IMG/VR virus record: IMGVR_UViG_3300032053_000003
Span: 1-30,391 of that record
Strand: one strand, 5' to 3'
DNA from: a virus
DNA length: 30,391 nucleotides
In this document: piece by piece, positions 372 to 15,290 of the stretch
Layout of the letters: the number at the start of each line of letters is the position of its first letter
How positions within the stretch are numbered: the stretch's first letter is position 1
Notes under the pieces: generated by a model
Databases searched by the model: none
The model's input: only the letters and a program-made list of their open reading frames with translations
Told to the model about the DNA's origin: nothing
Made by a program: the position numbers and the translations under genes

Positions 372-2698
372 TGGATTTAACATCCATGAACATAAACCCT
401 AAGATCAAAAAAGCTTGTAAGAAGCTTTCCAAGCAAGAAGCAACTTACATGTTGTCTGATATAGAAGGCTACAGGGAGCCTTTAGTTGATATCAACCAGT
501 TCATAGAGGACCCTGAATATTTGGGTGGTATCCTGAAGGATGAGAACGGTAAGACCAAGCTGTTCTCAATATGGGTTGATGCTTTAAACAAAGTATTTCC
601 CAATCCTTATTATTCGCCGTACTACGAAGTGGCCTTTTCGGGGGCCATAGGAGGAGGGAAAAGCACAGTTGGCAGGATCATCCTGATCTACGATCTCTAC
701 AAGCTCCTGATGCTTAGGAATCCTTTTACCAAGTATCAGTTGATTGCCTCTGATGCTATTGTCATGGCTCTTCTGACAGCTAACTTGAACCTGGCTAAGT
801 TAGTACTTTACAGACCTTTTAAGGAGTTGATCAGGTCATCTCCTTTCTTTATGAAGCTATTGTTAAACAAGAGGAAGATTAATGAGGGGGGATCAATAGA
901 GTTTCCTAATAATATATCCATCCAGGCAGGTTCACGATTCACTCATGCCTTGGGTTTGGCAGTTTTTTGTTTGAAGGGTGATACAAGACTTCCTTTATTG
1001 GATGGTAGAATTAGAACAATTGAAGAAGTTGTAAAAGAATTTGAGACTAATAAGGACTTGTATACCTATTCTTTGGATATACAGACTAAATCAATAGTTC
1101 CTGGTAAGATTATTAAAGCAGTTAACAATGGTACCAGGTCTGTGTATCGTGTTCATTTTGATAATGGTAAATACATAGATGCCACTGACAATCATCCTAT
1201 TCTCATGAGGAACAATAAGTATAAAAAGGTTGAGGATTTGTCTATCGGTGATAGTGTTATGCCATTTGAAATGAGGATCAATGATGATGGTTATTATAAT
1301 ATAGTTAATCCTTATGATGGTATTGATAGACCTGTTCATAAGATTATCTATGAATATAAAAATGGTAGCATCCCTGTTGGGTATTCTGAGGGTTTGGTTC
1401 AGTCTCATAATCATAAAATTGTGAGTATAGAATATCTTGGTGAGTATGATGTTTTTGATCTTACAATAGATAAGTATCATAATTTTGCTTTAGATAGTGG
1501 TGTTGTAGTCCATAATAGTGGACTTCTTGATGAGGCTTCGTATCAACAGGAAGGAGAGTCTACTCACCAGGCTTATGATTCTTACATATCTATGTCAAGA
1601 CGTATGAAGTCCAGGTTTATGGAGATGGGTGGAGGGGTGCCTGGGCACCTGTGCTTAATATCTTCCAAGAAGGATGAGAATGCATTCCTTGAGGCTCATA
1701 TTATAGAGTGCAAGGATGATCCTCACTTCATTTGCTTTGAGTATCCTCTTTGGGAGGCTCATAAGGACAAAGGGATCTATTCGGGTGTAACCTTTACAGT
1801 GTTTGCTGGGTCTACTCTCCAGTCCCCCAGGATCATCGAGGATGGCAATATTACCAAGTATCCTAAGGACAAGATACTTAACGTACCTATTGAGTACCAG
1901 AGTGAGTTCAAGACTAATATAGAAAAGGCTCTGATGGACCTGGCTGGGACTGTAACGATCTCCAGCTCCAAGTACATTGCATTCCCTGAGAACCTTATGA
2001 AGGCTATCAGGATAGTCCACTGCTGCAATGTGACTGATCATATTATTCTGGACTTCTTCGATGACAAACGGATCATCGAATTTGTTGATGTACAGAAGCT
2101 TAAATTGTACCTTAACCTGCTGAGTAACTCCCCTCGGTACGTTCATATAGATATTGGTATCACTGATGACTCTTATGGTTTTGCCATGTCCTGTGTGTCA
2201 GGCATGAGAGAGGTCGAGAAGTTTGATGTGGAAGAGCTAATGGATAATCCTACAGGTACAGGTGTAGTGATGAGGGCTGAGCCTGTCATTCGTACTGAGC
2301 TGGCTTTGTCTATCAGGTCTACTACAAGAGTTCCATTGTGGAAGGTCAGGGACTTTATTGTGGATCTCACAGAGATGGGATTCCCAATTGTTAAAGTAAC
2401 TGCTGACTCTTTCCAGTCTGAGGATACCTTACAGCTCCTTACCAAGATGGGCTATGAGACTGATACCATCTCTCTGGATAAATCGAAAGATCCTCATCTC
2501 ACATTCAGGAATGCTCTTTATGAAGGTAGGTGTGAGCTTCCTGATTTCAAACTGATGATCAAAGAGTTCACTGACTTGATTGACAAAGGGAAGAAGTTTG
2601 ATCACAGCACTTCTGGGACAAAGGATATCACAGATGCTGTTGTAGGATCTCATTATACAGCTTTCCAAGCCAGTGGTTCGTTTATTGATATACAGTAG
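371..2698 (+). CDS. terL: Terminase large subunit (ATPase + nuclease), interrupted by an in-frame mini-intein
   Basis: Walker A FSGAIGGGKST. After removal of residues 200-382 the junction reads ...LGLAVF|SGLLDEAS, restoring a Walker B-like hhhhDE. Size and position (start of the structural module) fit a large terminase subunit. Confidence 0.75.
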   Translation: MDLTSMNINPKIKKACKKLSKQEATYMLSDIEGYREPLVDINQFIEDPEYLGGILKDENGKTKLFSIWVDALNKVFPNPYYSPYYEVAFSGAIGGGKSTVGRIILIYDLYKLLMLRNPFTKYQLIASDAIVMALLTANLNLAKLVLYRPFKELIRSSPFFMKLLLNKRKINEGGSIEFPNNISIQAGSRFTHALGLAVFCLKGDTRLPLLDGRIRTIEEVVKEFETNKDLYTYSLDIQTKSIVPGKIIKAVNNGTRSVYRVHFDNGKYIDATDNHPILMRNNKYKKVEDLSIGDSVMPFEMRINDDGYYNIVNPYDGIDRPVHKIIYEYKNGSIPVGYSEGLVQSHNHKIVSIEYLGEYDVFDLTIDKYHNFALDSGVVVHNSGLLDEASYQQEGESTHQAYDSYISMSRRMKSRFMEMGGGVPGHLCLISSKKDENAFLEAHIIECKDDPHFICFEYPLWEAHKDKGIYSGVTFTVFAGSTLQSPRIIEDGNITKYPKDKILNVPIEYQSEFKTNIEKALMDLAGTVTISSSKYIAFPENLMKAIRIVHCCNVTDHIILDFFDDKRIIEFVDVQKLKLYLNLLSNSPRYVHIDIGITDDSYGFAMSCVSGMREVEKFDVEELMDNPTGTGVVMRAEPVIRTELALSIRSTTRVPLWKVRDFIVDLTEMGFPIVKVTADSFQSEDTLQLLTKMGYETDTISLDKSKDPHLTFRNALYEGRCELPDFKLMIKEFTDLIDKGKKFDHSTSGTKDITDAVVGSHYTAFQASGSFIDIQ
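968..1516 (+). mobile_element. Mini-intein (183 aa, no endonuclease domain) inserted in terL at the Walker B motif
   Basis: Begins Cys (CLKGDTRLPLLDGRIRTIEEVV = block A). Block B TDNHPILM (TxxH). Ends ...YHNFALDSGVVVHN followed by Ser (+1 nucleophile). All in frame with the host ORF. Confidence 0.8.
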
Positions 2699-2707
2699 GA
2701 GGTTCAA

Positions 2708-3472
2708 ATGGCATTAGGAAAATTTGATGGAATACAAGATACAAACATTGGCAAACTAGTATCGTTACCTTCAGCAAATATAGGTAGTGTTGGGGGTAAT
2801 GCTCTATCTGCTGCTCCTGATGCTTACACAAAGTTGTTATTACATATGGATGGTACAGAGGAGTCTAATACTTTTGTTGATTCGTCACTAACACCTAAGA
2901 CTGTAACTCCATATGGAAATGCTAGGACAGTGTCAGGACATCAGAAGTTTGGAGCTACAGGAGGATATTTTGGATCTGCATCTGATTATCTTAGTATACC
3001 TACCTCAACAGATTTTGAAGTTACTGGTGGTGATTTTACTATAGATTTTTGGACTTATTCAACACAGTACCCTGTGTCAGGTGAGGCCAAGTTTTTTGTG
3101 AGTTATGGTGTACATGCTAATGGACAGACATGGTATGAAGTATCTTTTGGAGAGGATCATAATGTTTGGGTGGCTCTCTACAATAGTGGTTATATTATTC
3201 TTATAGCTTCATCAACTAACTTACCTTTAAATCAATTGGTACATATTGCAGTAGTGAGAAGTGGAAATACTGTTTCTTTATATTTCAATGGAGTATTAAA
3301 AGGATCAACTATCTACTCAGGTAGTTATACTCCTACAGGAAAAACTTTGTGGATAGGATATAATAGTAGTGGTGGTCATGGTGCTCTTGCTAGTTATATA
3401 GATGAACTCCGTATCTCTAAGGGAATAGCCAGATGGACTACTGATTTTACTCCACCAACTTCACCCTACTAA
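2708..3472 (+). CDS. Fibre/receptor-binding-like protein, paralog 1: conserved N-terminal module (MALGKFDG..NIGK..NIGSVGG) plus C-terminal LamG/ConA-like jelly-roll domain
   Basis: N-terminal about 35 aa shared with ORFs at 10711 and 14307. C-terminal pattern FTIDFWTY...W.HIAVVRSGNTVSLYFNGVLKGS is typical of LamG-like (Laminin_G_3) lectin-fold domains. SD AGGAGG at 2698. Confidence 0.5.
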   Translation: MALGKFDGIQDTNIGKLVSLPSANIGSVGGNALSAAPDAYTKLLLHMDGTEESNTFVDSSLTPKTVTPYGNARTVSGHQKFGATGGYFGSASDYLSIPTSTDFEVTGGDFTIDFWTYSTQYPVSGEAKFFVSYGVHANGQTWYEVSFGEDHNVWVALYNSGYIILIASSTNLPLNQLVHIAVVRSGNTVSLYFNGVLKGSTIYSGSYTPTGKTLWIGYNSSGGHGALASYIDELRISKGIARWTTDFTPPTSPY

Positions 3473-14306: not shown

Positions 14307-15221
14307 ATGTCATTAGGAAAATTTGATGGAGTGGATTTAGTAAATATAGGTAAGGTAGTTAATTTACCTGTAATTAATATAGGTAAAGTGTGTGGGAATC
14401 TTTTCTCATTAAAAGGGAGTGCTTGGGCAACTACTTCAGATTTAAATGCAGTGAGAAATGTTTTGGCAGGTTGTGGAACAGCTTTTGCTGCTCTTTCCTT
14501 TGGAGGGGATACTGGAAATAATACTGGGGGTGATACAACAGAGATTTGGTCAGGATCTTCTTGGGCTACTACTTCGGTGTTAAATCAAGCTAGGTGGGCT
14601 TTAGCTGGGTGTGGAACTACTTCTGATGCTCTCTCTTTTGGAGGATACACTGTTACTTATTCAAATGTTACTGAAAAATGGTCAGGATCTTCTTGGGCTA
14701 CTACTTCAGCTTTGATAGTAGCTAAGTATGTTTTAGCAGGTTGTGGGATAACCAGTGCAGCATTAAGTTTTGGTGGGACTCCTGGAAATTCTTCTACCTC
14801 AATTTGGAATGGTTCTTTGTGGTCCACTACTAATAATAATTTATATCAAGGTAGGTATGCTTTAGCAGGATGTGGAATAACTAGTGCAGCACTGGCTATA
14901 GGTGGTTCCATAGGATCAGCATCAAATTTGTGTGATAAATGGAATGGCTCAACTTGGTCAACTACAACTGTATTGAATCAAGCAAGGTATGGTTTAGCTG
15001 GGTGTGGGACTACTTCTGATGCTCTCTCTTTTGGAGGGTACACTACAGGTAATCGTGTTAATGTTTCTGAGATGTGGGATGGTTCCTCTTGGTTTACTAC
15101 CTCTAATATGAATAAAGGTAGACGTTACTTGGCAGGTTGTGGTGATGTTTCGGTAGCTTTATCTTTTGGTGGTGAGGATAATCAGCCTCAGAATAGTAGT
15201 GTTACAGAGATTTGGTTATAA
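14307..15221 (+). CDS. Fibre/receptor-binding-like protein, paralog 3: conserved N-terminal module plus six Kelch-type beta-propeller repeats
   Basis: N-terminus MSLGKFDGVDLVNIGKVVNLPVINIGKVCG. Six tandem repeats of about 47 aa (W.GSSWATTS.LN.AR..LAGCG.TSDALSFGGY). Confidence 0.55.
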   Translation: MSLGKFDGVDLVNIGKVVNLPVINIGKVCGNLFSLKGSAWATTSDLNAVRNVLAGCGTAFAALSFGGDTGNNTGGDTTEIWSGSSWATTSVLNQARWALAGCGTTSDALSFGGYTVTYSNVTEKWSGSSWATTSALIVAKYVLAGCGITSAALSFGGTPGNSSTSIWNGSLWSTTNNNLYQGRYALAGCGITSAALAIGGSIGSASNLCDKWNGSTWSTTTVLNQARYGLAGCGTTSDALSFGGYTTGNRVNVSEMWDGSSWFTTSNMNKGRRYLAGCGDVSVALSFGGEDNQPQNSSVTEIWL

Positions 15222-15245
15222 GTTAAGACTAATTGGAGGTTCTCC

Positions 15246-15290
15246 ATGTCATTAAAATTTGATGGAGTAATCATCAGGTATGCAATATGA
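15246..15290 (+). pseudogene. 15-codon remnant of a fourth fibre N-terminal module (MSLKFDGVIIRYAI*), overlapping the start of the heptose kinase gene
   Basis: ATGTCATTAAAATTTGATGGAGTA is near-identical at nucleotide level to the 5' ends of the 10711 and 14307 genes (one Gly codon is deleted). SD TGGAGG upstream. Its TGA overlaps the ATG at 15287. Confidence 0.5.

Follow-up and report, generated by a model that had tools for sequence, protein, structure and literature searches.

In multi-receptor-binding protein (multi-RBP) systems of bacteriophages, the secondary RBPs carry a short, group-specific conserved peptide which docks on the primary RBP's branching domain (PMC6872550), and docking via such peptides has received experimental support (PMC13352976). 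Jumbo-phage examples are PhiK64-1 and RaK2 (PMC6872550); further examples are the Klebsiella phages KP32, KP34, and Menlow, as well as K1-5/SP6 and CBA120 (PMC6872550, PMC13352976). According to one proposal, truncated members of such systems are retained as landing sites for new heads (PMC6872550). The internal proteins of phage T4 form a diverse set sharing only an N-terminal capsid-targeting leader and are encoded at polymorphic loci (PMC3012670). The jumbo phage CBB has three small Kelch proteins, and mass spectrometry of virions revealed one of them, CBB_552 (PMC5259590). Here, we analyze a stretch of viral DNA of 30,391 nucleotides (IMG/VR record IMGVR_UViG_3300032053_000003; “the window”), which contains three genes that open with a common module, about 31 residues long, placed in front of different C-terminal domains (“heads”). 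The reading that we favour, and to which we give about an even chance of being right, is that of a docking peptide with exchangeable lectin-like heads, in a fast-turnover multigene family of an uncultivated jumbo-phage lineage.

The family resembles the multi-RBP systems in that each genome encodes several proteins in which a short conserved N-terminal peptide is followed by unrelated or variable distal domains, in that the peptide differs between phage groups, and in that truncated members persist; the known systems are richest in jumbo phages. It differs from them in that the heads are small LamG or Kelch folds of 250-315 aa instead of trimeric β-helix depolymerases, that the genes are dispersed and do not form a tail-fibre cluster, and that the bipartite, 31-residue NIGK tag has no sequence relation to known peptides. 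Moreover, no T4gp10-like anchor was found in the 30-kb window, and the virion location is putative here. In common with the T4 internal proteins, unrelated proteins bear a short N-terminal leader as an address label, and the loci vary among related phages. However, the T4 leader, about 10 residues long, has a prohead-protease site (L/I-x-E) at its end, whereas the three window modules contain neither a Glu residue nor a hydrophobic-x-E motif, and their cargo seems to bind extracellularly instead of counteracting defence. Among viral models, a structure search retrieved Kelch proteins of other jumbo phages, some of them annotated as virion proteins; CBB_550/552/554 and virion proteins of PhiPA3, PS119XW, and Noxifer are likewise small six-bladed propellers, occurring as several paralogs (template modelling (TM) scores of 0.67-0.79), albeit with only 10-17% sequence identity; no N-terminal module common to them has been reported. 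We assign the family to neither the multi-RBP nor the T4 system; it would work like the former, as a variant. The principle is already known, and what is new is the tag, the head types, the dispersal of the genes, and the reuse of remnants as coupling leaders.

A shared N-terminal module in front of different heads

The module, M-[AS]-LGKFDG-x4-NIGK-x7-NIG-x-V-x-G, consists of a conserved LGKFDG followed by two xxNIGKx units 11 residues apart, and opens the genes starting at positions 2708 (MALGKFDGIQDTNIGKLVSLPSANIGSVGGN), 10711 (MSLGKFDGVAVANIGKLTNMAPANIGKVGGC), and 14307 (MSLGKFDGVDLVNIGKVVNLPVINIGKVCGN; see Table 1 for all coordinates). The back-translated pattern of the first eight codons, ATGDSNYTNGGNAARTTYGAYGG, matched these three gene starts only, with 0.12 matches expected, and a hidden Markov model (HMM) of the module recognized genes 2708, 10711, and 14307 with E values of 1.5e-18, 1.7e-18, and 7e-19, respectively. 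The first 24 nt of the three genes are identical at 22-23 positions in pairwise comparisons. Both the common N-terminus and the near-identity of the DNA over about 25 nt, as noted in a preliminary description of the window, are borne out by these data. The module was also considered as a lipoprotein or signal peptide, but its sequence lacks a hydrophobic core and a lipobox. When the module profile was searched against 5.8 billion proteins, no candidate with three words in common was found; an HMM search with the 315-column profile P0051, which is dominated by the propeller, yielded one further module-bearing protein (P0232).

Gene 2708, which begins 9 nt past the terminase stop codon, codes for a LamG/ConA-like protein, as its residues 91-238 match PF13385 with an E value of 9.5e-22 (78.2 bits, compared to a gathering cut-off of 27.6). 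The PHROG matches of this part of the protein are to families of large virion and baseplate proteins. Single-sequence AlphaFold2 (AF2) prediction gave no usable model (predicted local distance difference test (pLDDT) score of 31). For gene 14307, an AF2 model built with 66 aligned homologues shows a six-bladed propeller (mean pLDDT of 91.4, predicted TM score of 0.86), with pLDDT >95 for residues 36-304. Its best PDB matches in a Foldseek search were the Kelch domains of LZTR1, NS1-BP, KLHL12, and Keap1 (TM scores of 0.70-0.78, E values of 1e-15 to 1e-17). In contrast to the adjoining propeller, residues 1-34, which include the module, have pLDDT values <50, and the module alone is predicted to be unstructured or flexible.

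The product of gene 10711 shares 43% identity with that of gene 14307 over the full length (E 2e-61), which identifies it as a six-bladed Kelch-type propeller as well and makes the two propellers paralogs. The LamG and Kelch folds proposed in the preliminary description are thus confirmed; its claim that the C-terminal domains diverge completely holds for LamG versus Kelch, but not for the two propellers. Neither of them matched a Pfam family at E <= 0.01, and a few of their sequence homologues carry PF13418, PF13964, or PF01344. According to an HMM search, over 3,700 proteins contain the propeller repeat, and many of these are giant.

Over the 31 codons of the module, the window paralogs use the same codon at 10-13 of the 18-19 positions with a conserved amino acid, compared to 7.6-8.3 expected from the codon usage of the window (P 0.02-0.18), and most pairs in the related phages L004 and L029 are at the codon-usage expectation. 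Paralog synonymous identity over the 31 codons is therefore at, or slightly above, the expectation (P 0.02-0.66), showing that the module is maintained by selection on the peptide and not by recent gene conversion; the latter was rejected as a general cause of module identity because synonymous sites have diverged. The idea that the 5' module acts as a recombination handle for the exchange of host-range determinants, as put forward in the preliminary description, accordingly found no direct support, and both roles are plausible but unproven. For the T4 internal-protein genes, Repoila et al. in 1994 reportedly proposed that a shared 5' motif may mediate shuffling.

Extra nucleotide conservation is confined to the first 8 codons. 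Codons 3-8 read TTA-GGA-AAA-TTY-GAT-GGA in all three genes and in a 5' remnant described below, and include codons which are in the minority in the window (TTA, 18% of Leu; GGA, 26% of Gly; AAA, 37% of Lys). A hand calculation from the codon frequencies gives a chance of about 2e-4 for five identical columns in three genes, which points either to a further constraint acting on the region of translation initiation or to gene conversion over a short tract.

Modularity and turnover of the family in related phages

A portal identical to that of the window was found on a 237,444-nt metagenomic contig (P0121), and so the window comes from an uncultivated jumbo phage with a genome of at least 237 kb. 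There was no match among 50,697 deposited phage records (megablast of 25 kb; tblastn of the propeller), and the lineage appears to be absent from cultured and deposited phages; two degenerate module DNA patterns and a portal-based locus search likewise returned nothing from IMG/VR. Contigs of the same phage (L016-L026) were recovered from metagenomes, together with relatives sharing 85% (L004, L005, L010), 83% (L027), 74% (L028), and 73% (L029) portal identity. A further relative, L015, has only the C-terminal portion of the portal on the contig. A pattern scan of the metagenomes matched L016, which is the same phage, the informative relative L015, and L014; the last was discarded as a module carrier, being a chance match of bacterial origin internal to an open reading frame (ORF).

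Family members in the relatives were identified by scanning six-frame translations with the module HMM. Besides the three in the window, there are 2-5 module-bearing genes per related phage, and the module is still recognizable where portal identity falls to 72%. The L004-type strains possess three to four Kelch members at positions unlike those of the window, namely, one before the portal gene, two after it, one before the heptose kinase gene, and one after the kinase gene (the last in L010). In L027, the module precedes a domain of about 210 aa (“YNRFYFPS...NPWIEFSSGIYL”) and another of about 260 aa, and L029 encodes the “YxRFYFPS” domain twice, another domain of about 200 aa, a glycine-rich stub of 55 aa, and a LamG protein whose module has diverged. 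At least five unrelated head types hence occur behind the module: LamG, Kelch, the “YxRFYFPS...NPWIEFS” domain, two other domains, and the Gly-rich stub. Pfam, PHROG, and PDB sequence searches with the new head types of the relatives gave nothing significant. Between members with different heads, BLAST similarity ends after about 35 N-terminal residues.

Comparison of equivalent positions, as called for in the preliminary description, revealed alternative heads in the slot after the terminase gene, which holds module plus LamG in the window, and module plus the “YxRFYFPS” domain of about 210 aa in L029 and, after one small ORF, in L027. The modular nature of the family proposed from the window is thus corroborated by the same module in front of at least five head types, by loci which vary in gene content, and by remnants which retain the 5' module. 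An ordinary paralog family, formed by duplication and divergence and owing its shared N-terminus to common descent with no exchange of cassettes, would fit the 43% full-length identity of the window propellers, the absence of signs of recent gene conversion at synonymous sites, and the somewhat higher module similarity within a head class (0.494 versus 0.405, a comparison confounded by phylogeny). However, the folds of the LamG, Kelch, and other heads are unrelated, meaning that the module has been joined to new domains several times; besides, the post-terminase slot contains different heads in related phages, and remnants and deletions attest to ongoing rearrangement at the family loci. We consider common descent without cassette exchange very improbable.

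Whereas flanking genes of the window and L004 are 74-85% identical, their family members share only 34-45% identity. L005 and L004 have flanks with 99-100% identity, but differ by deletions of 93 nt and 1.27 kb (L005 1805-2698 versus L004 4201-6400); the larger one, a loss from L005, joins the 5' third of one propeller gene to the following gene's 3' end, leaving fragments. L015 contains two tandem 5' remnants after the portal region (2111-2277), which have 27 of 29 nt in common. The first is a stub of 19 codons, and the second is an ORF of 38 codons in which module residues 1-17 are joined to the last ~20 residues of a propeller; this ORF is ATGA-coupled to the next gene, which has an MSKAS leader. 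The remnants, and the deletion between near-identical strains, show that turnover of the family is fast. After the kinase gene, L004 encodes a 521-aa protein (12051-13616) with β-helix-like sequence repeats and no significant family or structure match; at this place, a propeller member is present in L010, and nothing in the window.

A 5' remnant of a family member is also present in the window, directly ahead of a gene coding for a D-glycero-beta-D-manno-heptose-7-phosphate kinase, which is a neighbour and not a family member; its bit score for TIGR02198 exceeds the cut-off. The first 23 nt of the remnant correspond to the start of gene 14307 minus a 3-nt deletion (a GGA codon), and ATGTCATTA-N{0,3}-AAATTTGATGGAGT was matched at 14307 and 15246 alone, with no match expected by chance, confirming the remnant reported in the preliminary description. 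Its stop codon TGA overlaps the ATG of the kinase gene (ATGA), and the kinase gene is apparently translationally coupled to the remnant ORF. Adjacency of propeller and kinase genes is also observed in L004; however, the spacer there contains a hairpin instead of a remnant ORF, and the kinase gene has its own GAGGAG. Since three remnants keep the gene start, two of them with an ATGA overlap, and since the L004 kinase gene has a Shine-Dalgarno sequence of its own, we infer that the start may have been kept after loss of the body because it was selected for driving translation of the neighbouring gene. Deletion of the body would tend to spare the strong translation start, i.e., the Shine-Dalgarno sequence plus the first codons, and the spared start would be reused as a short upstream ORF coupled to the next gene, as ahead of the heptose kinase gene. 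The remnants would thereby illustrate how loss of a phage gene is buffered, an old start being reused to translate the next gene. No further relics were found by tblastn of the intergenic regions of the window, including 16295-16492, where relatives have family genes.

Alternatively, the shared 5' end might mainly serve expression, as a cassette with a strong Shine-Dalgarno sequence and A-rich, weakly structured first codons which was copied on duplication, and the peptide would have no docking role. Identity of the partly rare codons 3-8 in the three window genes and the remnant (chance ~2e-4) fits such a cassette, as does the retention of remnants exactly where an ATGA overlap can drive the downstream gene. 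On the other hand, amino acids are conserved up to residue 31 despite synonymous differences, the peptide persists in phages in which nucleotide similarity has vanished, and a module-like C-terminus of the 521-aa protein of L004, albeit a weak match, cannot act in initiation. A cassette serving expression rather than docking thus appears improbable.

The preliminary description had listed five copies, one of them a decayed family member at 10393-10650. That assignment has to be withdrawn, because this ORF has full-length counterparts (86-87 aa, 49-51% identity, 34 invariant columns) in both L004 and L027, shows dN/dS ratios (nonsynonymous to synonymous substitution rates) of 0.17-0.30 across the three phages, and gives no match to the module HMM; it is a separate, conserved, functional gene. 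The string “AALGFDE”, on which the assignment had been based, is not kept in the homologues. A leader sequence, AGGRGGTTCAAATG, is indeed present at both 2697 and 10382, as noted previously, but it is lacking in the leaders of the homologues and is only a Shine-Dalgarno sequence plus spacer.

Possible function of the module

According to our favoured reading, the flexible peptide would be a docking tag which folds onto an acceptor site shared by all members, most plausibly located on the virion surface or the fibres, and the phage would display a changeable set of lectin-like heads binding host surface glycans. Recombination and deletion would place new heads behind the tag and remove old ones. 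Known relatives of the heads bind ligands, mostly carbohydrates. Module positions 5-8 seem to carry a genome-specific signature that is independent of head class, as co-evolution with one genome-encoded partner would give: the LamG protein and both Kelch proteins of the window have KFDG there, L027 has KL[DN]G, and five members from L029, belonging to four head classes, have K[LVI][NS]x. In view of the flexible tag, the putative ligand-binding heads, this signature, the PHROG matches of the LamG part, the tail-fibre-type N-termini of propeller homologues elsewhere, and the precedent of CBB, a docking tag for surface display appears to be the best explanation.

Several observations weigh against this explanation. 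The family genes are located outside a tail or fibre module and are scattered among terminase, portal, and putative injected-effector genes and a glycan cluster, and the head folds are typical of monomers, in contrast to the trimeric β-helices or fibres of classical RBPs. No candidate acceptor, such as a T4gp10-like protein with a branching domain, is encoded in the 30-kb window of a genome of at least 237 kb. Nor does module similarity clearly follow genome rather than head class: it is 0.455 within and 0.415 between genomes (P 0.07), and is higher for the same head class than for different ones (P 0.019, with the phylogenetic confounding mentioned above). In L004, the C-terminus of the 521-aa protein (...LKFMGSENVGEIDNVALANIGKVIGKTL) is a weak match to the module HMM (E 0.01); if real, it argues that the peptide may work irrespective of its position. 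Finally, the phage is uncultivated and known from metagenomes only, and we infer the virion location.

The location of the genes among putative host-takeover genes (ART-PolyVal, ParB-like) rather than tail genes, and the finding that the nearest solved structures are Kelch substrate-adaptor domains, would be compatible with interchangeable intracellular substrate receptors, which the peptide docks onto one phage or host enzyme complex, in analogy to BTB-Kelch or F-box families sharing one ligase. However, other heads favour carbohydrate ligands (LamG, and repeats suggestive of a β-helix), the LamG part matches virion and baseplate families, and a Kelch protein of phage CBB is a virion component. 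Propellers elsewhere are preceded by other N-terminal adaptors, among them a widespread type (“MTTYKxIxGT...DPSNPxEGQVWYNSTS”) and a tail-fibre type (“YGLKKPEGTD”), the latter also arguing against an intracellular role; genes with such adaptors form tandem arrays, located in L003 beside a tail-protein-like gene. Intracellular receptors therefore stand only a slim chance of being the correct interpretation.

If the tag indeed docks, it would be a compact and apparently portable means for a giant phage to show, and quickly replace, many small carbohydrate-binding domains, and the logic of tailspikes, an anchor with a variable head, would then also cover monomeric lectin folds and genes outside the tail module. 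The motif MxLGKFDG...NIGK...NIGK would then be a sequence handle for adhesion genes of uncultivated jumbo phages, and possibly a tag for engineered display.

Neighbouring genes and a second leader family

Table 1. Coordinates of the family members and of other features of the window.
Feature	Position	Strand	Remarks
Large terminase gene	371-2698	+	Interrupted by an intein (PF14890), residues 208-382
Family member 1 (gene 2708)	2708-3472	+	254 aa; module (2708-2800, 31 codons) plus LamG/ConA-like head
T4-like portal gene	6502-8838	+	Interrupted by an intein (PF14890), residues 368-539
Gene outside the family	10393-10650	+	Intact, conserved, 85 aa; homologues in L004 (7252-7515) and L027 (8907-9167)
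Family member 2 (gene 10711)	10711-11616	+	301 aa; module (10711-10803) plus six-bladed Kelch-type propeller; phrog_27227, E 9e-41
HNH/endonuclease VII-like gene	12744-13373		phrog_3322, E 1e-22; 50-nt overlap with the 3' end of the DUF5662 gene
Palindromic hairpin	14201-14227	+	Perfect, 27 nt, ATGAGAACGATGTCTGATCGTTCTCAT; directly 3' of the DUF5661 gene
Sigma-70-like site	14266-14294	+	TTGACA-17-AATGAT; consensus scan, pattern match only
Family member 3 (gene 14307)	14307-15221	+	304 aa; module (14307-14399) plus six-bladed Kelch-type propeller
5' remnant of a family member	15246-15290	+	GGAGG Shine-Dalgarno sequence at 15236-15240; 14 codons, MSLKFDGVIIRYAI, and stop
D-glycero-beta-D-manno-heptose-7-phosphate kinase gene	15287-16294	+	PfkB, E 1.6e-41; TIGR02198 (rfaE_dom_I), 370.5 bits versus cut-off of 345
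Sugar-related cluster	15287-21651		Downstream of the third family member; heptose-7-phosphate kinase, GT2-like and other putative transferases
FN3-repeat protein gene	20989-21651		Signal-like N-terminus; part of the sugar-related cluster

All long ORFs of the window up to ~27.8 kb are located on the + strand; at this position both coding strand and GC skew reverse, and the genes at ~27800-30391 are on the - strand. The window codes for a large terminase, a T4-like portal, many small proteins, a heptose-7-phosphate kinase, and glycosyltransferase-like proteins. Terminase inteins of the relatives are longer and contain LAGLIDADG or HNH domains. The HNH/endonuclease VII-like gene, which is not present at the equivalent position of L004, probably codes for a free-standing homing endonuclease.

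The palindrome ahead of gene 14307 is likely a bidirectional terminator, and together with the sigma-70-like site it suggests that gene 14307 may form its own transcription unit. A motif, AGATTTTGTCAC, or a close variant of it, precedes the ATG of gene 14307 (~14265-14285) and that of the orthologous L004 gene (~9911-9925) by 30-45 nt, with a weaker version ahead of gene 10711 (~10680-10695); it may represent a phage-specific promoter element.

A second shared N-terminal leader, M-[STGN]-K-A-[QRHE]-x-x-(L/F)-L-(E), which is unrelated to the module, opens at least 12 otherwise unrelated small genes. In the window, it is found at starts 3, 3751 (GTG), 4294, 5710, ~6080, 8985, 11634, 11836, 12140, 13741, 16493, 17912, and 27566, and it also occurs in L004, L015, and L016. 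A regular expression for this leader gave 12 matches with ORFs of >=50 aa, one of which is false (inside the propeller gene, at 11119), compared to 0.02 in shuffled sequences. Its cargo includes ParB-like, ART-PolyVal, DUF5661, and DUF5662 domains, i.e., domains of “polyvalent” injected proteins, and most of the leaders have a hydrophobic-x-Glu motif at residues 7-12, reminiscent of the T4 prohead-protease site. The leader resembles a T4-type capsid-targeting sequence (cf. PMC3012670), and MSKAQxLLE fits the T4 model much better than does the MxLGKFDG module.

Tentatively, the two leaders might be viewed as orthogonal address labels of numerous small genes with single domains, the NIGK tag directing monomeric lectin-like heads to one external acceptor on the particle, and MSKAQxLL(E) directing effector domains (ART, ParB-like, DUF5661, DUF5662) into the capsid for injection, with leftover tag starts recycled as coupling leaders; taken as a whole, this scheme seems rather unlikely. 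If true, it would amount to plug-and-play display, in which members are gained, lost, and re-headed over short evolutionary times.

The DUF7717 gene at 17465-18268 runs in frame into a segment beginning with MSKAQLVKELFEQL..., and the second-leader start at 17912 is internal to this gene, with its own AAGGAGG just upstream. The DUF7717 gene of L027 codes for 117 aa only. The arrangement at 17465-18268 is suggestive of a fused gene, or of an internal start which has retained the leader.

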